Assembly: GCA_014913405.1 (NCBI GenBank) | Contig: GCA_014913405.1_3931.1 | Strand: one strand, 5' to 3' | From: a phage | DNA length: 64,000 nucleotides | In this document: positions 639-40,152 of the stretch, one piece after another | Layout of the letters: every line of letters begins with the position of its first letter | Position numbering within the stretch: the first letter of the stretch is position 1 | Translations under genes and position numbers: made by a program | Notes under the pieces: generated by a model | Database searches by the model: none | What the model was told of the DNA's origin: nothing | Seen by the model: the letters and a program-made list of their open reading frames with translations, nothing else

Positions 639-1382
639 ATGAGTAATATTATCGCATTTACTGGAAAGGCACGTTCTGGAAAAGACACCTCATGTTCTAT
701 TGTGAAGAACATTTTAGAGGATGAGTATGGCTACAATGTTGAAGTAATGGCCTTTGCAGACAACCTTAAACTATCTGCATCAAAGATATTTGACTTGACT
801 TGGAATGACCTGTACGGTGAAACTAAAGAGACTCCACAGGTTTTTGACTTATCATATCCTGAACTGATGTTTAAAGTTACGGAAGCTATGGAGTTCACCT
901 TCAGAGATGAACGTTACCATATGGACTTCAAGCTTATGTCAGAGTTAACCGGACGATTAATCATGGAGCTTAAGAAGGTTGCTAAACCTACCCTATTAAC
1001 ACGTCTGGGATTTAGTAAAAAGTATAAATTCTCATCAAGACAAATTCAACAGATTTGGGGTACTGAAGTTGTCCGTAAAGTAATGGGCGACAAGTTCTGG
1101 TCTAAAGACCTTGAAAAAAGAATGGTTAGATTCCATGAAATGTGCTCACTTAGAAATCAATATGGTTTTGTCTTAATCAGTGATTTAAGATTTGACTCTG
1201 AAGCTGAATGGCTGAGTAGATTTGCACACCAAACTATTGAAGTAAAAAGAGACAATGTGGACAAAGTTCCATCACATGTTTCAGAAAATGGGATTTCTAC
1301 AAAATATGAGCGTGACATTATTCATAATAATGGTACTCTTGCAGACCTTGAGAACAAGCTAAGAGCCATCATTAAAGTTTAA
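639..1382 (+). CDS. deoxynucleoside monophosphate kinase (T4 gp1-like)
   Basis: N-terminal P-loop FTGKARSGKDT resembles T4 dNMP kinase; RBS AAGGGAG upstream. Confidence 0.6.
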   Translation: MSNIIAFTGKARSGKDTSCSIVKNILEDEYGYNVEVMAFADNLKLSASKIFDLTWNDLYGETKETPQVFDLSYPELMFKVTEAMEFTFRDERYHMDFKLMSELTGRLIMELKKVAKPTLLTRLGFSKKYKFSSRQIQQIWGTEVVRKVMGDKFWSKDLEKRMVRFHEMCSLRNQYGFVLISDLRFDSEAEWLSRFAHQTIEVKRDNVDKVPSHVSENGISTKYERDIIHNNGTLADLENKLRAIIKV

Positions 1383-6512: not shown

Positions 6513-6761
6513 ATGTTTAATAAAAGCAAAGCTGTGAGTCATGTAGCAAAAGTTGACAGTAAGATTGAAGAACTTGAGCGCATTCTTGCAAATGCTAGAG
6601 AGTCGATAATTAAAGAAGTTGAAGCTGTTGAATCTCAAATGCAGCACCTAATGCTTAAACGCCAAGAGCTACGTGAACATCTGGAATATATTGAAACACG
6701 AGAGCTAAAGGTTAACAGATATTTTAAGGAGTCCGAATGTTTAACTCAAGAGAATCAGTAA
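6513..6761 (+). CDS. hypothetical coiled-coil protein
   Basis: ATG at 6513 (track start 6498 is TTG). Confidence 0.35.
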   Translation: MFNKSKAVSHVAKVDSKIEELERILANARESIIKEVEAVESQMQHLMLKRQELREHLEYIETRELKVNRYFKESECLTQENQ

Positions 6762-7492
6762 AAAACTGGAATCTTCGTTGCGGAAAAACTCAAAAACAAC
6801 CATACAGTAATGAGTATTGGGAGTCTTTGAAATCTCAATCTCTGTGTATGCTTGAAGAAGCAAAAGAGCTTGTAAAAGCAATTGAAGAGAAAGACCCCAT
6901 TGAGACACTGGATGCTCAGGCAGATTTGCAATATGTTCTTGACGGTTTGATTTACCTGTCACAACATGACCATAACGGTGCTATGAAAGCTGTTTGCCAT
7001 AATAATGACCTGAAATACACAGACGATTATGAAGAAGCTTTAAAACGTCTTGCAGATATTGAGAAGCGTACTGGTCAAGATTGTATTGTCAGAATGTCAG
7101 TAGTTGATGGTAAAGAGTGGTACGCAATTGTTCGTGTAGCCGATGGGAAGATTATGAAGCAATCGAATCTCCCAAAAGTACAGCTTGGTGAATACATTGT
7201 AGAACTTGAAAGCCAAGAACTTTTTGTGGTAGTATCTGAGACATGCGTTATCTGCAAAGGTATTGTAGGTAGCTTAAAGGATTTGGGTGTAGATGGTTTT
7301 GTAGAAGTTAATCCAATTACCTCTAAAGCAGATAAAGACTTCTGTAAAGAGAACGGACTATGGATTGCAGATATTGTCTACTATGATGGTGAGCAGTTCC
7401 ATGTAACCTCATACCCGAAACTGAATTATGATGCTAATAACCTGAAGTGCTGGTTAAAAGGGGTTGGTTATAATGGATTCACAGAACATTAA
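6737..7492 (+). CDS. putative MazG-like nucleotide pyrophosphohydrolase
   Basis: EEAKELVKAIEEKD...DAQADLQYVLDGL resembles the MazG/HisE EExxE...D motif pair; RBS AAGGAG. Confidence 0.3.
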   Translation: MFNSRESVKNWNLRCGKTQKQPYSNEYWESLKSQSLCMLEEAKELVKAIEEKDPIETLDAQADLQYVLDGLIYLSQHDHNGAMKAVCHNNDLKYTDDYEEALKRLADIEKRTGQDCIVRMSVVDGKEWYAIVRVADGKIMKQSNLPKVQLGEYIVELESQELFVVVSETCVICKGIVGSLKDLGVDGFVEVNPITSKADKDFCKENGLWIADIVYYDGEQFHVTSYPKLNYDANNLKCWLKGVGYNGFTEH

Positions 7493-16331: not shown

Positions 16332-16652
16332 ATGAGCAAAGTTTATAACACTCGTAAATTACAGATTTTCTTACTGTGCCAGTTTATGGCTAGAGAGCAT
16401 AACTCCTACTATTGTGGTACAGGATTCATTAGTGATAATGATGGCTCATATCTCCCATTCAAAGAGGCTGTAAAACTCTTCAATGAAGAGAAAAGCTCTG
16501 AGAAAGATATTGAAAAGGTTAAATTAACCTATAGTAAGAAAGATAAGAAGATTATCTGCCTAGATAACTTTGTGAAAGTTACCAAAGAAACTAAAGAGTT
16601 AATGGAAGAAAGTGAAATTCCATTCACAAGAATCTTGAAAGTAGCTCAGTAA
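16332..16652 (+). CDS. hypothetical protein
   Basis: ORF track. Confidence 0.4.
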   Translation: MSKVYNTRKLQIFLLCQFMAREHNSYYCGTGFISDNDGSYLPFKEAVKLFNEEKSSEKDIEKVKLTYSKKDKKIICLDNFVKVTKETKELMEESEIPFTRILKVAQ

Positions 16653-16703
16653 GCAGATACTATAAGGGAACTGTAAAGGTTCCCTTTTTATTTTGGAGAT
16701 AAT

Positions 16704-17219
16704 ATGTATCTGTCAAATCTGAAACGTTCTGCTGCAATGTCAGTGTTAAGACTCAGTTTTGAGGAACGTCAAAAGTTCATTGACTCCCACCAATACGACC
16801 CTTCCAACTCCAATCACATGATTCTCTGGAATCGTGAGAGTACTCGTGAAAGAGCATTATTTCGATATTACCCACACTATACCATAGACAACCTATATGA
16901 ATGCTTTGTTGTGAAGAACACCATTACAGTACTCAATAAACTTTGCAGATACACAGGCAGTCAATCCTTCACATTAGGTCACCACAAACCTGTTACAAAA
17001 GGTGGTGAACATCACTGTGCAAACTGGTTTATTCAGACTAAAGCTGATAACCAGAAGCAAGGAGATAGCCTTTTAAGTACCCCTAAGATGACCTATGAAG
17101 AGCAAGAGAGATATATCAAAAATAATATGCCAGATGTGCTTGACAACAACTATACAGATTTGGCAATATCTCTCCTGTTGAAGTTCGAGATAGTTTATAG
17201 GGCAACTTACAATGGCTAA
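16704..17219 (+). CDS. putative HNH endonuclease
   Basis: GHHKPVTKGGEHHCANWFIQTKADNQKQGD matches the HNH pattern. Confidence 0.5.
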   Translation: MYLSNLKRSAAMSVLRLSFEERQKFIDSHQYDPSNSNHMILWNRESTRERALFRYYPHYTIDNLYECFVVKNTITVLNKLCRYTGSQSFTLGHHKPVTKGGEHHCANWFIQTKADNQKQGDSLLSTPKMTYEEQERYIKNNMPDVLDNNYTDLAISLLLKFEIVYRATYNG

Positions 17220-17490
17220 AGAAAAGTGGGAGATTTTACCATTAGTCAGTGAAGGTGGTAATGGTTGTGAAATGTACATGATACGTGGTCATGTTCCAGA
17301 GCCAATTGCACTTGAGATGGTAAACAACTTTACAGATGGTTCTTACAAAGACTTAGGCGAACCAACTGTCAAGCAACAATGGGTTAAACCTGTACCAGAC
17401 AGCACAGGTAACTGTAGTGTACTTTATCACGTTGTAGACCCTGCAAAATGCAAATCTGCAATGGCAGTAACAAACGTAACTTTTGATTGA
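17212..17490 (+). CDS. hypothetical protein
   Basis: ORF track. Confidence 0.4.
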   Translation: MAKEKWEILPLVSEGGNGCEMYMIRGHVPEPIALEMVNNFTDGSYKDLGEPTVKQQWVKPVPDSTGNCSVLYHVVDPAKCKSAMAVTNVTFD

Positions 17491-17501
17491 GAGAGAAAAC
17501 T

Positions 17502-18383
17502 ATGAAAACATCTATCCGTGTTACAGTTCATTCACCAACTAAAGGAACTCATGAAGAAGAGTTTAACATCATCCAATTTCCTTCTGGTGAGATTGGTGGA
17601 CACTTTTCGCCAGAGTTTGTTGATTTCACTGCTTATGCAGCATCATCCATCAACAATGTGATTATGATTGTAAAAGGTTATGATAAGGATACATTGTTTG
17701 CTGTGGCACTTGCTAAAGAAGCAATTGATGATTTAATTCCTCATGATTATGCTTTAAAGACTGTCATCTTTTACTACTTACCAAATGCACGTTATGACCG
17801 TCACATGTTTAAAGGCGACGCAGCAGCTTTAAAGGTTTTTGCTAAACAGGTAAATGCAATGGGATTTGGTGCAGTCTGTGCAGTTGACCCTCACAGCTAT
17901 GTACCAGATAACCTGTTTAACTGCTTCCAGAGTATTCCTCAAAAGGAAATTGCAGTCCACTATGCAAATGACCCACTGATTGATTACTTAGTAGCCCCAG
18001 ATGCAGGTGCTGCTAAGAAGATTGCAGAGACTGCTAAAGAGGTGGATAAACCATATATCACAATGTCTAAAGTACGCAACCTTAAGACTGGTGAAATTAC
18101 TGGTATGCGAATCCTTGATGATGTTGATTTGACAGATAAAACCGTCATGATTCTAGATGATATCTGTGATGGTGGTCGAACCTTCATAGAAGCAGCTAAA
18201 CATCTTCGTGAAGCAGGTGCAAAACGTGTGGAACTCTATGTAACACACGGTATCTTCTCTAAAGATGTTGAAAACCTTCTTGACAATGGCATTGACCACA
18301 TCTACACTACAAACTCTTTAGGGGAAGCTAAAGACCGTGGCTTAACACATTATGGTCAAGTTACTGTAGCAAACCTTGATTGA
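17502..18383 (+). CDS. prs: ribose-phosphate pyrophosphokinase (PRPP synthetase)
   Basis: VMILDDICDGGRTFIEAAKHLREAGAKRVELYVTHGIFS aligns by eye with the E. coli Prs PRPP-binding region; ATG at 17502 (track start TTG at 17487). Confidence 0.8.
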   Translation: MKTSIRVTVHSPTKGTHEEEFNIIQFPSGEIGGHFSPEFVDFTAYAASSINNVIMIVKGYDKDTLFAVALAKEAIDDLIPHDYALKTVIFYYLPNARYDRHMFKGDAAALKVFAKQVNAMGFGAVCAVDPHSYVPDNLFNCFQSIPQKEIAVHYANDPLIDYLVAPDAGAAKKIAETAKEVDKPYITMSKVRNLKTGEITGMRILDDVDLTDKTVMILDDICDGGRTFIEAAKHLREAGAKRVELYVTHGIFSKDVENLLDNGIDHIYTTNSLGEAKDRGLTHYGQVTVANLD

Positions 18384-18392
18384 AACTTTATA

Positions 18393-18413
18393 GGGGCTTA
18401 AAAGCCCCATTTT
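18393..18413 (+). terminator. putative terminator hairpin
   Basis: GGGGCTT-AAAA-GCCCC followed by ATTTT. Confidence 0.4.
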
Positions 18414-18428
18414 GAGAGAGATTAAAAG

Positions 18429-20210
18429 ATGACTAAATCACTTTATGCAGTACCAGCAGGTTTAAACGCAGATGCTTACAAATCTGGTCATGTTTACCAG
18501 TACCCTAGTGCAACAGAGTACTTGATGTTCAACCTGACACCACGTAGTGACAAATGGTTTAACAGCCCCTTAGCAATTGATGGTGTAGTAGCTTTTGGTA
18601 TTCAACGTTTTGTTAAAGATTACTTGATAGACCACTGGAATGCCACTTTCTTTGAACGTGATAAAAAAGAAGCCATTGATGAAATCTTAGAAGTCATGAA
18701 TGGTGTTCTGGGTAAAGATGCTATCGGTCGAGAGCATTGGGAAGCACTTCACGACTTAGGTTATCTACCAGTTGAAGTATACGCTGTAGAAGAAGGCACA
18801 GTTGTTCCAATGCGTGTACCGATGATTGTCTTTCAGAACACTGTTTCAGGTTTTCATTGGGTAGCAGGTTATCTGGAAGATGCTTTCTCTGCTGAAATTT
18901 GGAAGGCTTGCACCATTGCAACTATTGCATTGCATTACAAACGCATCTGTAAGAAGTGGGCTGACCTTACTTGTGACAATGACTTACATTTACCTTATCA
19001 GTGCCATGATTTTGCTATGCGTGGTATGTCCGGCTTTACTGATGACGCATTTAATGCTGTAGGTCACTTAACCAGCTTTAAAGGGACTGATAGCTTCCCT
19101 GCTGTATACACGGCTAAACGAATCTATGGACAGTCCTACCCAATCTCTGATATTGGTAGTTCTGTACCAGCCACTGAACACTCTGTAATGTGTGCAAACA
19201 TTGCTTGGGAAGGTGGTAATGAATTGATTGAAGATGAAAGACGTTTTAAAGGTGAGTTACAAACCTTCCGTCGTTTCTTAACAGAAACTTACCCAACGGG
19301 TATTGCAAGTATTGTTTCAGATACTTATAACTTCTGGAGAACTGTGTCAGAAATCTTACCAGCACTCCGTAAAGAAATTATGGAACGTGATGGCAAACTG
19401 GTAATTCGTCCTGACTCTGGAGACCCTGTACACATTGTCACAGGTTATAAAGCAATCCACTTAGAGTGCGCTAAAAAGGCTTATTATGAGCACCTTAGTA
19501 AGCTGGAAGCCAGTGACACAATGTTGAATGCTGTTCTGAACATGAAGCTTGAAAACATCAGCTATGGTATTGCTGGATGGCTACTGTCAGAAGGCTACGA
19601 AATGGTTGTTGATAGAGAAGACTTTGAAGTTGCTGACACAGTGATGTTGAAGAACGCTTATATGGTTGGTTCTGCAAACGTTGTAACACGTCCTGTAGCA
19701 GAGATTGATGGAGCTATTAAGACCCTGTATAACATCTTCGGAGGGACTATCAACTCCAAAGGTTTTAAGGTACTGGATGAGCACATTGGCCTTATCTATG
19801 GCGACTCTATCACGTTGGAACGTGCAAACGAAATCCTGAAGCGTCTGTATGAAATGGGGTTTGCAAGCTCTAACGTGGTGTTTGGTGTAGGCTCTTACAC
19901 TTACCAGTACATGACTCGTGACACCTTTGCATTTGCTGTCAAAGCAACTCTTGCAAGCATTGGTGGCAAAGAGATTATGCTTGCAAAAGACCCTAAAACA
20001 GATAGTGGTGTTAAGAAATCTGCCTTTGGTGGTGTAGCACCTATGTGGGATGGTGAGAATTTGAAAGCTGTAGATGGCTATGGATTCCAGAGCTTTGCAG
20101 ATGCACTTGAACATCCAGCTTGTGCTTTACGTTTAGTCTTTAGCGACTCTGAGCAGTACGGTTACACAACTCTTGGTGATATTCGAAATAATATTGACAA
20201 GCAGCTTTAA
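18429..20210 (+). CDS. nicotinamide phosphoribosyltransferase (NAMPT)
   Basis: 593 aa; N-terminal DAYKSGHVYQYP resembles the NAMPT DSYK..H..QYP motif. Confidence 0.75.
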   Translation: MTKSLYAVPAGLNADAYKSGHVYQYPSATEYLMFNLTPRSDKWFNSPLAIDGVVAFGIQRFVKDYLIDHWNATFFERDKKEAIDEILEVMNGVLGKDAIGREHWEALHDLGYLPVEVYAVEEGTVVPMRVPMIVFQNTVSGFHWVAGYLEDAFSAEIWKACTIATIALHYKRICKKWADLTCDNDLHLPYQCHDFAMRGMSGFTDDAFNAVGHLTSFKGTDSFPAVYTAKRIYGQSYPISDIGSSVPATEHSVMCANIAWEGGNELIEDERRFKGELQTFRRFLTETYPTGIASIVSDTYNFWRTVSEILPALRKEIMERDGKLVIRPDSGDPVHIVTGYKAIHLECAKKAYYEHLSKLEASDTMLNAVLNMKLENISYGIAGWLLSEGYEMVVDREDFEVADTVMLKNAYMVGSANVVTRPVAEIDGAIKTLYNIFGGTINSKGFKVLDEHIGLIYGDSITLERANEILKRLYEMGFASSNVVFGVGSYTYQYMTRDTFAFAVKATLASIGGKEIMLAKDPKTDSGVKKSAFGGVAPMWDGENLKAVDGYGFQSFADALEHPACALRLVFSDSEQYGYTTLGDIRNNIDKQL

Positions 20211-20223
20211 AAGTATATGATAA

Positions 20224-20247
20224 GAGGCTCCTACGGGAGCCTTTTTA
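20224..20247 (+). terminator. rho-independent terminator
   Basis: GGCTCC-TACG-GGAGCC followed by TTTTT. Confidence 0.6.
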
Positions 20248-27052: not shown

Positions 27053-27318
27053 CAGAGAATGAAGATACTTTTTACGTAGAGGGTTACTTACTGTTACCAC
27101 GACCAAAAGAAACTTATATGCGAATTGACTTCTTACCAACCATTATGGATAATGTGATGTGTCATATCTTTATGCAAGGTGTCACAGCACAGCTTAAGCA
27201 CGTTGGTAAAGAGTGCAAAATAAAGGTTGACACTCATCCAGAAATCAAAGAGAATCACTACACATGGTTCTTACCAGACTCTAAAGAAATCTTAGCAGTT
27301 CTCAAAACGAGGAAATGA
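27049..27318 (+). CDS. hypothetical protein
   Basis: ORF track. Confidence 0.4.
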   Translation: MTENEDTFYVEGYLLLPRPKETYMRIDFLPTIMDNVMCHIFMQGVTAQLKHVGKECKIKVDTHPEIKENHYTWFLPDSKEILAVLKTRK

Positions 27319-27629
27319 TTATGCAATTCCAGCCAACAAATCGTGGATTTTCTTATGCAGAATTTAAAGATGCTAAAGGGGAAATTTGTACTTTACAAGA
27401 GAGTTCATCATATGAACCATGTATTTGGTTAGGTGCTAAAGAGGTCTCTGTTCAGTACCTAGATGGTGGCTGGAAAACACTTGATATCCCAGCATTAGTA
27501 GGCAAAGATTTTGTAGGTAACCAAAGAATGAAACTCAACCAAGAACAGGTGAAAGAGTTATTGCCATACCTTCAGTACTTTGCTGAAAATGGTGAATTAC
27601 CAACAGAGGAACTTACAAATGCAGATTAA
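27315..27629 (+). CDS. hypothetical protein
   Basis: ORF track. Confidence 0.4.
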   Translation: MIMQFQPTNRGFSYAEFKDAKGEICTLQESSSYEPCIWLGAKEVSVQYLDGGWKTLDIPALVGKDFVGNQRMKLNQEQVKELLPYLQYFAENGELPTEELTNAD

Positions 27630-27945
27630 TGGAAGAGACTTTGTAGCCGTTTACTACGAGAAAGATAAAGAAGTTGGCGTAGCACAAGTATCTTATGGTA
27701 ATGGTAAGTGGTTGTATGGGACAATCGCAGTAGTCGGAACAAGAAGTGATACAAAAACTTTTAAAGATTGTGTTGACCTTCTTGAAGAATCCATCCACAA
27801 TCATTGGTGTCTGATATGGATGACTGACAACGAAGTGATAGAACGCTTCAAAAAGATTGGTATCAACATTGATAGTATTGAGCATGTTGATTTATATGAG
27901 CTAACTGAGAAGGTAAACTATGAAAGTAATACTAGCCAGAGATAA
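27619..27945 (+). CDS. hypothetical protein
   Basis: ATG at 27619 after CAGAGGA (track start 27580). Confidence 0.4.
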   Translation: MQINGRDFVAVYYEKDKEVGVAQVSYGNGKWLYGTIAVVGTRSDTKTFKDCVDLLEESIHNHWCLIWMTDNEVIERFKKIGINIDSIEHVDLYELTEKVNYESNTSQR

Positions 27946-28153
27946 AAAGACACGTAAGATTGTAAGTTCAGCAGTATTCAAAGGGAGACATGAAGTCGTC
28001 CCGTTTACAGGAGAAGGTGTGTTAACTTACAAGAAGGTGATGAAACGTGAGTGCAGTAACCATTTCCGTGACTTCTTCTCTGAACCATTAGGAGACTTTA
28101 AAAGTCGCTGTGGTAAAGGCATCATCACTCAAGAGGTAATTATTCATGGCTGA
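27920..28153 (+). CDS. hypothetical protein
   Basis: ORF track; RBS GAGAAGG. Confidence 0.4.
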   Translation: MKVILARDKKTRKIVSSAVFKGRHEVVPFTGEGVLTYKKVMKRECSNHFRDFFSEPLGDFKSRCGKGIITQEVIIHG

Positions 28154-28346
28154 CTTCTGCAAAGACTGTGCTATCGAAATGTTCGGACGTGATACAGGTG
28201 ACTTAAAAGGTCTTATCACTGAAGATGACTTTAAAGCTGGCTATGCAATGCCAGTAATCTGTGAAGGTTGTGGATGTATCTGGGTAGACCATGAGGGGCA
28301 ACGTGTAAAACCTTCAGAAGATAAAGAATCTTGGGAGAGATGTTAA
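28146..28346 (+). CDS. small zinc-binding protein (CxxC...CxGC)
   Basis: CKDC near the N terminus and CEGCGC near the C terminus. Confidence 0.4.
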   Translation: MADFCKDCAIEMFGRDTGDLKGLITEDDFKAGYAMPVICEGCGCIWVDHEGQRVKPSEDKESWERC

Positions 28347-29126
28347 ATGGGTATTGTAAAAGTTGTGAAAGGTAACTTACTAGCTGCCTTCAAAAACACA
28401 GACATTGAGTTAATTGCTCATGGTTGCAACTGCCGTAACCTCATGGGTGCTGGAATCGCTCAAAAAATTGCTAAGATTTTCCCAAAAGCTGAAGAAGCTG
28501 ACCGGAAATTCCATAAAAAGTTTGGCTACAGCGCTCATGATATCGGATACCAGATGATTGGTGAGGTGTCACATGCTCGAACGGAGTATGGTTACATTTT
28601 TAACCTATATACACAGTTGGATGTTGGGAAGTGTGCATCATACCGATACTTAGTGGAGTCACTAGAAAAACTCCGTAAATTTTGCTGGATGCACAACATT
28701 CGTAAGATTGGTTTACCCATGATTGGTGCAGGTATCGGTGGTTTAGACGCACAAGCTGTGAAAAGCCTCATTAATAGCGTTATGTACAACGTTGATGTGT
28801 ACCTATACGTCTATGATGAAGCAATGGCAACTGTAGTTACCCCTAAGTATGCCACCTCAGCACCACAATTCTATGATGGTGTCGTGCTAAGTGACGGTAA
28901 GTCTAACCATGTTACCCTCTATCAGCTTGTTGATGGTAAGGTCGAGGCTAGTTACCCTCTGGTTAGTGAGATGGGTATGTGTAATAGTGAAATGTTCTCA
29001 ATTGACCCGTTTGGTAGATACGAAGGGGTGTTCTTTGATAGCTACCCAGCAGCATACATCTACACAACAAATCAGGATGAAGTTCACTACTTGCTGTATT
29101 CTAAAAAGTTCAAATTCATAAACTAA
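28347..29126 (+). CDS. putative macro-domain (ADP-ribose-binding/processing) protein
   Basis: N-terminal IELIAHGCNCRNLMGAGIAQKI resembles the macro-domain H-x-x-N-x-x-x-M-G-x-G-I-A signature (from memory). Confidence 0.4.
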   Translation: MGIVKVVKGNLLAAFKNTDIELIAHGCNCRNLMGAGIAQKIAKIFPKAEEADRKFHKKFGYSAHDIGYQMIGEVSHARTEYGYIFNLYTQLDVGKCASYRYLVESLEKLRKFCWMHNIRKIGLPMIGAGIGGLDAQAVKSLINSVMYNVDVYLYVYDEAMATVVTPKYATSAPQFYDGVVLSDGKSNHVTLYQLVDGKVEASYPLVSEMGMCNSEMFSIDPFGRYEGVFFDSYPAAYIYTTNQDEVHYLLYSKKFKFIN

Positions 29127-39570: not shown

Positions 39571-40152
39571 TCAAGAGTATTTTTTAGGCAGTAATGCACT
39601 GCGCTTATTGCTCTCTTCACTCAATAGTGCGATAAATTCATCACCTTTACCCTTCCACGGGCTGAATGTCGGAATGTGCTCTCTGATAGCATCAATCACT
39701 GTTTTAAGGGCGTTGTTCTTTAACCACCAATCAGATACCGCTGAAGCTACAATGTAGTAAGCACCGTCATCTGTGAAGATTGGCTCAGAGATACATGGCG
39801 AAATCATAGTGGTAATGATAGAACCATTATTCATGTAGTATGTTCTTTTTTCAACCTTATCAAGAAGCTTATGAAGGTCTGCAAAGAGACTCACCACCTC
39901 TTTATGGTCAATATCTTTTTCAAGATTTGCTCTATATTTCAATAGTGCAGCATCGACCTCTTTGTCATTGAATTTGAAGTATTGAACTTCTTCATTCACA
40001 CATACACTGATGTTGTTGGTGTTTATCGTCAATTTGCACAGTTTGACTGGAGAGTTAATGTTGGTCTGAAAAAGTGCTACACAGCCTTCTACATTCCCGA
40101 AATGTTTGACTAATGTAACTTCTGGTTGGATGTGCTCATGTTCTTCTGACAT
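39571..40152 (-). CDS. hypothetical protein
   Basis: ORF track. Confidence 0.4.
   Translation of the reverse strand: MSEEHEHIQPEVTLVKHFGNVEGCVALFQTNINSPVKLCKLTINTNNISVCVNEEVQYFKFNDKEVDAALLKYRANLEKDIDHKEVVSLFADLHKLLDKVEKRTYYMNNGSIITTMISPCISEPIFTDDGAYYIVASAVSDWWLKNNALKTVIDAIREHIPTFSPWKGKGDEFIALLSEESNKRSALLPKKYS

Follow-up and report, generated by a model that had tools for sequence, protein, structure and literature searches.

The Prs-like and Nampt-like gene pair of a Felix-O1-like coliphage very probably encodes NAD+ reconstitution pathway 1

When a phage encodes a homologue of PRPP synthetase (Prs) directly upstream of a homologue of Nampt, does the pair make NMN, or does it rebuild NAD+ by another route? 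We followed up such a pair in a 64,000-nucleotide stretch of phage DNA (the window), the source of which is a Felixounavirus, that is, a Felix-O1-like coliphage. The first-pass annotation had read the two genes as a single NAD+-restoring module that counters NAD+-depleting host defences and that converts nicotinamide and ribose-5-phosphate into NMN. Both the module and its purpose are borne out by orthology to genes 79-80 of phage Bas63, the founding example of NAD+ reconstitution pathway 1 (NARP1). The proposed chemistry fails: Osterman et al. (bioRxiv 10.1101/2024.02.11.579819) had first predicted the same ribose-5-phosphate/PRPP/NMN route for the Bas63 pair by annotation, and then refuted it.

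We are highly confident that the two genes constitute NARP1. What we computed for this identification is orthology to tested genes, conservation of the residues for catalysis and specificity, the arrangement of the operon and the absence of an NMNAT; both enzyme activities and the counter-defence phenotype are taken from the literature on orthologues and homologues. The pair is thus already published and is ordinary for a Felixounavirus, and the 2.9-kb region around it has matches in 258 phage records (best, 97.9%). As gene names, adps (for ADPR-PP synthetase) should replace prs, and namat (for nicotinamide ADPR-transferase) should replace nadV (Table 1).

Table 1. Features in and around the gene pair, in window coordinates
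Feature	Position	Strand	Description
adps ribosome-binding site	17489..17496	+	GAGAGAGA; purine-rich, 5 nt before ATG 17502; read from sequence
adps	17502..18383	+	293 aa; predicted Prs-like ADP-ribose pyrophosphokinase (ADPR-PP synthetase), from homology and residues
Divergent allele patch	17502..18000	+	Adps N-terminal domain; from nucleotide identity to Bas63
Intergenic hairpin	18393..18413	+	GGGGCT-TAAA-AGCCCC then ATTTT; 6-bp stem
namat ribosome-binding site	18414..18421	+	GAGAGAGA; read from sequence
namat	18429..20210	+	593 aa; predicted Nampt-like nicotinamide ADPR-transferase, from homology and residues
Promoter-like site for next unit	20194-20221	+	TTGACA-16-TATGAT; directly upstream of terminator
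Intrinsic terminator closing the unit	20222..20245	+	10-bp stem then T-run; pattern scan
Macro-domain protein gene	28347-29126		259 aa; PF01661; 8.1 kb downstream of NARP1, >10 genes away

Homology and specificity residues of the two enzymes

Both adjacent ORFs named in the first-pass annotation are present, with homology far above chance. The likeness to Prs that it saw in the PRPP-binding loop of the upstream product also stands, as a PRPP-loop-like motif (VMILDDICDGGRTF). This protein matches the Pfam families Pribosyltran and Pribosyl_synth, and in a copy of the PDB that lacks the ICP1 Adps entries its matches are all cellular Prs (best, 4twb, E 4e-18). A canonical Prs identity was nevertheless rejected: only the broad model TIGR01251 (ribP_PPkin) was passed, with 121 bits (E 4e-35; cut-off 113), whereas all Prs equivalog cut-offs were missed by far (NF002320, 90 bits versus 297; NF002095, 103 versus 296; NF003428, 55 versus 536). 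Compared with E. coli Prs, the alignment is short by ~13 residues at the C terminus, where a canonical Prs has its regulatory module, and by about 10 at the N terminus. By contrast with its 29% identity to E. coli Prs, the protein is 37% identical to the biochemically validated Adps of ICP1 and 38% identical to the Adps of Vibrio phage Gary, which is part of a functionally tested operon (NARP1-AP; bioRxiv 10.64898/2026.01.28.702374). It is 79% identical to bas63_0079, gap-free and of equal length, and matches phrog_619 (E 9e-97), a family common to the ICP1 and Dax Adps proteins. Judged on identity and PHROG, we place the predicted Adps in the phage Adps clade rather than with cellular Prs.

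Structures of ICP1 Adps have mapped the catalytic and ADPR-binding residues, and its K185A mutant is dead (PMC13586617). On alignment to the ICP1 sequence from GenBank, residues F18, R87, H121, D161, K185, D212, D213, I214, C215, D216 and F221 correspond to F26, R97, H131, D167, K190, D219, D220, I221, C222, D223 and F228 of the window protein. The ADPR adenine contact F92 of ICP1 corresponds to M102, with a Phe adjacent at 103, and the PP loop reads CDGGRT versus CDGAAS in ICP1; M102/F103, CDGGRT and the mapped catalytic residues are all identical in Bas63. The start of adps at ATG 17502 is supported by the placement of its ribosome-binding site and by the annotation of the Bas63 gene from ATG, and the in-frame TTG at 17487, which the ribosome-binding site overlaps, was discarded as a start.

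The downstream product matches the Pfam family NAPRTase (E 5e-35) as well as NAMPT_N, scores 469 bits against NF006629 (cut-off 405) and matches phrog_448 with E 2e-202. It is 98% identical to bas63_0080, again gap-free and of equal length, and among solved structures those of SPbetaL1 Namat, 9w5w and 9w5x, come closest (E 5e-128). The catalytic core is present as D15, Y17, F195, R198, D221, H251, R327 and D329 (D13', Y15', F189, R192, D215, H245, R306 and D308 in SPbetaL1 numbering). Catalytic residues are therefore kept in both proteins, and the 593-aa protein appears to be a different transferase, a Namat, from the NAMPT for which it had been taken.

Two elements of this protein bear on its choice of substrate. 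The published Namat-versus-Nampt discriminator is the SCH motif GSxΦxΦxΦTRD, in which x is aromatic and Φ is small or polar (structural paper); a regular-expression search finds it in the window protein as GSYTYQYMTRD at residues 488-498, and it is absent from Xanthomonas Nampt (GGALLQKVDRD) and from chain 9ke8 (GAQTYQRNTRD). For the selectivity-clamp loop (SCL) we looked for Arg, Lys or Tyr at the third loop position plus a stacking residue, and found both in the loop R39-S-D-K42-W43, which is identical in Bas63. A Lys-Trp pair has been described for the SCL of Bas63, with stacking assigned to the fourth residue (structural paper). The putative adenine selectivity clamp that SCH and SCL compose sets the window Namat apart from true Nampt.

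Among known systems, Bas63 (Escherichia phage JohannRWettstein; reference genome MZ501086) is the closest: it belongs to the same genus and shares with the window the gene order, the lengths of 293 and 593 aa, the 45-nt spacer, the catalytic and specificity residues, an identical terminator and the stem of the intergenic hairpin, with one loop change. The NARP1 pairs of SPbetaL1 (Bacillus) and ICP1 (Vibrio; NrsA/NrsB) follow the same two-enzyme logic and have in common with the window the Namat core and SCH motif, the catalytic lysine and acidic triad of Adps and its PP-loop DDICD sequence; the ICP1 Namat is 43% identical to that of the window. The SCL of these two uses Arg, unlike the Lys-Trp of the window Namat. 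Felixounavirus Namat is ~100 aa longer than the SPbetaL1 and ICP1 homologues, with inserts at ~268-277, at 341-421 (~80 aa) and near the C terminus. E. coli Prs and the human and Xanthomonas Nampts have the same folds as the window proteins and share with them the catalytic-loop K/R, the DD..D ribose-phosphate loop and His251, Arg327 and Asp221, but the SCH-equivalent of cellular Nampt has no aromatic residues. A Namat homologue lies near 97% of Adps-clade genes; in the window, the two genes share a strand and namat begins 45 nt after adps ends.

The proposed route to NAD+ and a distant Macro-domain protein

NARP1 starts from the ADP-ribose and nicotinamide into which NAD+ is cleaved by host defences such as SIR2-HerA/Nezha, type I Thoeris, DSR1, DSR2 and SEFIR. 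Adps, with its Prs fold, would pyrophosphorylate ADP-ribose at the 1'' hydroxyl of its distal ribose, using the beta,gamma-pyrophosphate of ATP and releasing AMP along with ADPR-PP, and Namat, with its Nampt fold, would swap the pyrophosphate of ADPR-PP for nicotinamide to yield NAD+ directly, its adenine-stacking clamp favouring ADPR-PP over PRPP. NAD+ would thus be rebuilt without an NMN intermediate, an NMN adenylyltransferase or a host salvage enzyme.

The evidence for this route comes from in vivo metabolomics for Bas63 and from in vitro activities of the SPbetaL1 and ICP1 homologues (~37% identical), which were used for enzymology because Bas63 Adps purified poorly. Formation of ADPR-PP (m/z 720.010) required both wild-type phage and the defence system, and deletion of Bas63 genes 79-80 revealed the counter-defence phenotype, which was independent of host NadR and PncC (bioRxiv 10.1101/2024.02.11.579819). 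NARP1, established in 2024 with the pair of this sister phage, represents a general viral strategy that mends the damage done by immunity rather than inhibiting an immune protein. For phage therapy and for predicting host range, a phage that carries NARP1 is expected to withstand NAD+ depletion by SIR2-, TIR- and SEFIR-type defences; that expectation does not extend to depletion of the RES type (aRES), for which a phosphatase would be needed as well.

Such a phosphatase is found in the NARP1-AP operon of Gary, in which the Macro phosphatase Adpp is encoded between Adps and Namat (37% identical to the window Namat). A linked three-gene NARP1-AP was rejected for the window: neither the operon nor its four neighbouring ORFs (16704, 17212, 20264 and 20602; two on each side, none with a Pfam domain) includes a Macro gene in Pfam and PHROGs searches. 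The window does encode an unlinked Macro-domain protein in the same PHROG as Adpp. It scores 29.6 bits against PF01661 (cut-off 22) and belongs to PHROG 335 ('phosphatase'), along with the validated Gary Adpp and its Dax orthologue; it shares 28% identity with Gary Adpp (E 8e-14), resembles yeast Poa1p, an ADPR-1''-P phosphatase (E 1e-4), and has an additional C-terminal region of ~100 aa. The Macro alleles are highly divergent (41% identity).

This protein might extend NARP1 in trans, turning ADPR-1''-phosphate, the product of NAD+ phosphorolysis by aRES/RES, or another ADPR derivative into a feed for Adps, an arrangement that would add to NARP1 rather than replace it and that we regard as unlikely. 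Its domain, its PHROG and its likeness to Adpp and Poa1p fit such a role, and the number of records with a full-length homologue, ~257, is close to the number with the NARP1 region; the published survey scanned only two genes on either side of NARP1 and so would have missed the gene. However, the family is represented in 2826 phage records (a background of about 5.6%), many of them T4-like and annotated as Tk.4 or phosphatase, and both the distance from the pair and the extra C-terminal region argue against such a role. Because a polynucleotide kinase gene lies nearby, the protein could just as well act in RNA repair or de-ADP-ribosylation. The phages tested against aRES in the aRES paper include no Felixounavirus, and a literature search for the function of phage or Felixounavirus macrodomains found only work on eukaryotic-virus macrodomains. 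If a supply in trans did occur, Felixounaviruses would also escape RES-type NAD+ phosphorolysis.

NMN synthesis as the alternative chemistry

Under the alternative closest to the first-pass annotation, a true Prs and a true Nampt would make NMN out of ribose-5-phosphate, ATP and nicotinamide, and host NadR/PncC or an unrecognized phage NMNAT would complete NAD+, much as in NARP2. Although the Pfam and NCBIfam names agree with this, and the TIGR01251 and NF006629 scores lie above their cut-offs, the wide margins by which the Prs equivalog models are missed and a clamp for ADPR-PP that true Nampts lack both speak against it, and we consider it very improbable. The biochemistry of the homologues points the same way: purified SPbetaL1 Adps formed a product from ADPR and ATP but no measurable product in an assay of Prs activity, and the second enzyme, offered ADPR-PP and PRPP together, yielded NAD+ only (bioRxiv 10.1101/2024.02.11.579819). 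In that study, Namat homologues retained a residual activity in vitro, making NMN from PRPP when ADPR-PP was left out; by analogy, the window Namat may also synthesize some NMN.

Phage enzymes of the Nampt clade occur together with Nmnat, whereas the window pair does not. The NARP2 of Vibrio phage KVP40 (the Nampt NadV plus a bifunctional Nmnat) resembles the window pair in using a Nampt fold to restore NAD+ against depletion defences, but it consumes PRPP, passes through NMN and needs its Nmnat; the window has an adjacent Prs-like Adps and the ADPR-PP clamp instead. Pfam scans of 37 ORFs in the window, covering the unannotated ones down to a length of 115 aa, found no CTP_transf_like, Nudix or RyR domain, in agreement with the first-pass annotation, which had recognized no NMN adenylyltransferase in the window and had proposed a search of the rest of the genome for an NMNAT or Nudix gene. 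That search was carried out in the close relative Bas63, in which scans of ten unannotated ORFs outside the extent of the window found no NMNAT, Nudix or RyR match. NARP2 and NARP1 plus RyDEP, the form with an RyR-domain cADPR glycosidase in its locus, were accordingly set aside, with no Nmnat and no RyR domain in the scanned ORFs. For NARP1 the apparently missing NMNAT is no puzzle, as its route bypasses NMN, and what had looked like a gap in the module is not one.

Allelic variation and regulatory elements

Nucleotide identity to Bas63 falls to 61-79% over the first ~500 nt of adps, compared with 90-99% in both flanks, and at the protein level the identity is 67% for Adps residues 1-165 and 94% for residues 166-293. 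We refer to this sharp segment over the N-terminal domain as a recombination patch. The identity of adps is two-peaked across 254 phage records, 153 of which are at least 90% identical (window type) and 98 of which are 60-80% identical (Bas63 type), such that the genetically tested N-terminal allele of Bas63 differs from that of the window, and the window type is the more frequent of the two in the genus. Host factors aimed at these counter-defence enzymes may have selected for the two Adps alleles and the divergent Macro alleles. That adps and namat are decayed or non-functional remnants, for which the divergent patch is the sole point, is scarcely credible, given two intact ORFs with ribosome-binding sites and every mapped catalytic residue, a pair kept in ~250 Felixounavirus genomes and an adps allele carried by the majority.

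The TTGAGAGAGA motif of the adps ribosome-binding site also precedes namat. The 45-nt spacer between the genes folds at -12.6 kcal/mol, and its hairpin is a possible attenuator or RNA-stability element, a function that we infer. The strong terminator that closes the unit folds at -16.6 kcal/mol.

Identity of the gene pair

Both genes are real and intact. The reading frames lie where the first-pass annotation had placed them, and its recognition of their homology was correct, as Pfam, NCBIfam and PHROG matches bear out: the product of adps matches Pfam Pribosyltran and Pribosyl_synth, TIGR01251 (121 bits, NCBIfam) and phrog_619 (E 9e-97), and that of namat matches Pfam NAPRTase and NAMPT_N, NF006629 (469 bits, NCBIfam) and phrog_448 (E 2e-202). 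The genes are separated by 45 nt, and the purine-rich ribosome-binding site GAGAGAGA precedes the ATG of each. An in-frame TTG at 17487 was rejected as the adps start because it overlaps this site.

Features in and around the NARP1 locus and elsewhere in the window
Feature	Coordinates	Strand	Details
deoxynucleotide monophosphate kinase	639-1382	+	PF21448, E 3e-20
MazG-like nucleotide pyrophosphohydrolase	6737-7492	+	PF01503, 26 bits; phrog_2144, E 4e-101
sigma-70-like match, upstream junction	16635-16686	+	TTGAAA-17-TACTAT (9/12), terminator hairpin directly after
nearest predicted upstream terminator	16664-16686	+	
small conserved ORF	16704-17219	+	phrog_3500, weak HNH-endonuclease match
small conserved ORF	17212-17490	+	phrog_4726
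adps	17502-18383	+	293 aa from ATG
intergenic hairpin	18393-18413	+	GGGGCT-TAAA-AGCCCC then ATTTT; 6-bp GC-rich stem, kept in Bas63
namat	18429-20210	+	593 aa
sigma-70-like match, downstream junction	20194-20245	+	TTGACA-16-TATGAT (11/12), terminator hairpin directly after
strong predicted terminator after namat	20222-20245	+	same sequence in Bas63
Macro-domain protein	28347-29126	+	259 aa; PF01661, 29.6 bits, N-terminal
193-aa ORF	39571-40152	-	

The system is already known and was described in the same genus, Felixounavirus: the founding example of NAD+ reconstitution pathway 1 (NARP1) is this gene pair, genes 79-80 of Bas63 (Osterman et al., bioRxiv 10.1101/2024.02.11.579819). Bas63 (Escherichia phage JohannRWettstein, MZ501086) is colinear with the window from about its position 34,350, across the record ends, to about 11,950. 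Its genes bas63_0079 and bas63_0080 match adps and namat in length (293 and 593 aa) and are likewise 45 nt apart. Direct comparison gave gap-free identities of 79% for Adps and 98% for Namat. Matches to the 2.9-kb region come from 258 phage records, nearly all Felixounavirus (Escherichia, Salmonella, Shigella and Citrobacter hosts), the closest being E. coli typing phage 1 at 97.9% identity.

The first-pass annotation had read the pair as a PRPP synthetase and a NAMPT that together make NMN. Osterman et al. likewise began with Prs and Nampt Pfam annotations and an expectation of NMN, which they then disproved, overturning the Prs–Nampt route for the Bas63 orthologues (bioRxiv 10.1101/2024.02.11.579819). 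Bas63 without genes 79-80 became sensitive to SIR2-HerA, and untargeted metabolomics detected ADPR-pyrophosphate (ADPR-PP) only where wild-type phage was combined with the defence system. Given ADPR and ATP, the purified first enzyme of SPbetaL1 formed product, but it formed none in a Prs assay; the second enzyme of the pathway made NAD+ from nicotinamide and ADPR-PP, and NAD+ was its sole product when PRPP and ADPR-PP were both supplied (all bioRxiv 10.1101/2024.02.11.579819).

That no NMN adenylyltransferase is recognisable in the window, as initially noted, held up in Pfam scans of unannotated window ORFs of at least 115 aa, and this absence is expected for NARP1 rather than a gap. The same scans found no Nudix or RyR domain, and none of the three was found by Pfam scan and annotation in the portion of Bas63 outside the window. 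NARP2 (Nampt plus Nmnat, via NMN) and NARP1 with RyDEP, an RyR-domain cADPR glycosidase, are ruled out by the lack of an NMN adenylyltransferase or RyR domain in the scanned ORFs.

Specificity residues of Adps and Namat

The structure of ICP1 Adps has been solved by Liu et al. (PMC13586617), and we mapped residues by alignment of the window, Bas63, Dax and ICP1 sequences with E. coli Prs. ICP1 F18', R87, H121, D161, D212/D213, I214-C215-D216 and F221 correspond to F26, R97, H131, D167, D219/D220, I221-C222-D223 and F228 of the window Adps, and the catalytic K185, whose change to alanine leaves ICP1 Adps dead (PMC13586617), corresponds to K190. ICP1 F92 is replaced by M102, with F103 adjoining, in the window as in Bas63, and the PP loop reads CDGGRT in both, whereas ICP1 has CDGAAS. 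The window Adps is 37-38% identical to the ICP1 and Gary proteins and 29% identical to E. coli Prs; it misses all Prs equivalog cut-offs widely (NCBIfam) and lacks the C-terminal tail of E. coli Prs, which extends about 13 residues past its end.

For Namat, structures of the SPbetaL1 enzyme with NAM and with NAD+ (Lan et al., PMC12774641) supply two marks that set it apart from Nampt: a selectivity-clamp helix GSxΦxΦxΦTRD, in which x is aromatic and Φ small or polar, and a variable loop with Arg, Lys or Tyr at residue 3 (PMC12774641). In the window protein, as in Bas63, the helix reads GSYTYQYMTRD (488-498) and the loop R39-S-D-K42-W43; the helix columns are GGALLQKVDRD in Xanthomonas Nampt and GAQTYQRNTRD in chain 9ke8. 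The core is complete (D15, Y17, F195, R198, D221, H251, R327, D329, G458 and D459), and among solved structures the Namat entries 9w5w and 9w5x come closest (E 5e-128), compared with E 1e-40 for human NAMPT. Compared with the SPbetaL1 and ICP1 enzymes, Felixounavirus Namat has about 100 extra aa, mainly because residues 341-421 (window 19449-19691) form an insertion of about 80 aa; a further 10 aa are inserted at residues 268-277. Both insertions distinguish it from the SPbetaL1 and ICP1 Namats and from Nampt. The larger one is common to Bas63 and partly to Thalassavirus Namat, and searching the text of the structural paper (PMC12774641) for insertion-related words turned up no mention of it.

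Alleles and transcription of the locus

Nucleotide identity to Bas63 is 90-99% in the flanks; at the ATG of adps it falls to 61-79%, returning to the flanking level at about 18000, so the N-terminal domain of Adps is a separate allele. The interval 17502-18000 (+) forms a sharp recombination patch with its onset at the start codon. Between the two Adps proteins, amino acid identity is 67% over residues 1-165 and 94% over residues 166-293. Identity across 254 records is two-peaked, with 153 at 90% or more (window type), 98 at 60-80% (Bas63 type) and 3 between. Two discrete classes of the N-terminal domain thus circulate in the genus, and Bas63, the phage used in the experiments, has the less common one. 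All mapped functional residues of Adps are alike in both alleles.

Judging from its sequence, the hairpin in the adps–namat spacer might stabilize the upstream mRNA or attenuate read-through. At both the upstream and downstream junctions a promoter match abuts a terminator, so the predicted transcription start falls inside the hairpin, and these compact terminator/promoter junctions are predicted to bracket a unit that contains NARP1. Because the nearest upstream terminator precedes them, the two small ORFs, in which no Pfam domain was found, may be co-transcribed with NARP1.

A Macro-domain protein and other genes

NARP1-AP adds the Macro phosphatase Adpp to NARP1 (bioRxiv 10.64898/2026.01.28.702374), and it is conceivable that it acts ‘in trans’ here through the unlinked Macro-domain protein. 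This protein, which sits where Bas63 has bas63_0095 (a gene annotated as ‘putative phosphatase’), belongs to PHROG 335, as does Adpp of Vibrio phage Gary, a validated ADPR-1''-P phosphatase to which it is 28% identical (E 8e-14). Its matches among solved structures (PDB) include TARG1/OARD1 and yeast Poa1p, and it has an additional C-terminal region of about 100 aa. About 257 records contain a full-length homologue, comparable to the number with this NARP1 region, and the published survey of NARP1-linked Macro genes reached no further than two genes from the operon. However, the Macro family spans 2826 phage records, many T4-like phages among them, and a polynucleotide kinase gene lies near the Macro gene, which makes other roles as likely. 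The protein may be an unlinked NARP1 accessory, or may serve in RNA repair or de-ADP-ribosylation. Linked NARP1-AP, ordered Adps-Macro-Namat in Vibrio phages Gary and Dax, was rejected given the 45-nt adps–namat spacer and the lack of a Macro match in the four adjoining ORFs.

The window Macro allele is 41% identical to bas63_0095 and reaches at least 90% identity in only 13 phage records; as 27300-29600 aligns to Bas63 only in blastn pieces of 76-87% at most, with gaps between, this is a hypervariable locus.

These and the other side observations are modest leads. The 193-aa ORF has a weak sub-threshold DUF5092 match and one to an AID/APOBEC-like deaminase family, SNAD1 (18 bits, cut-off 25), both probably due to chance. 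The MazG-like gene is another nucleotide-metabolism gene. A phage deoxynucleotide monophosphate kinase triggers Kongming (KomABC), an NAD+-depleting defence that NARP1 neutralizes (PMC12774641); as the window encodes such a kinase, the phage may hold both trigger and antidote.
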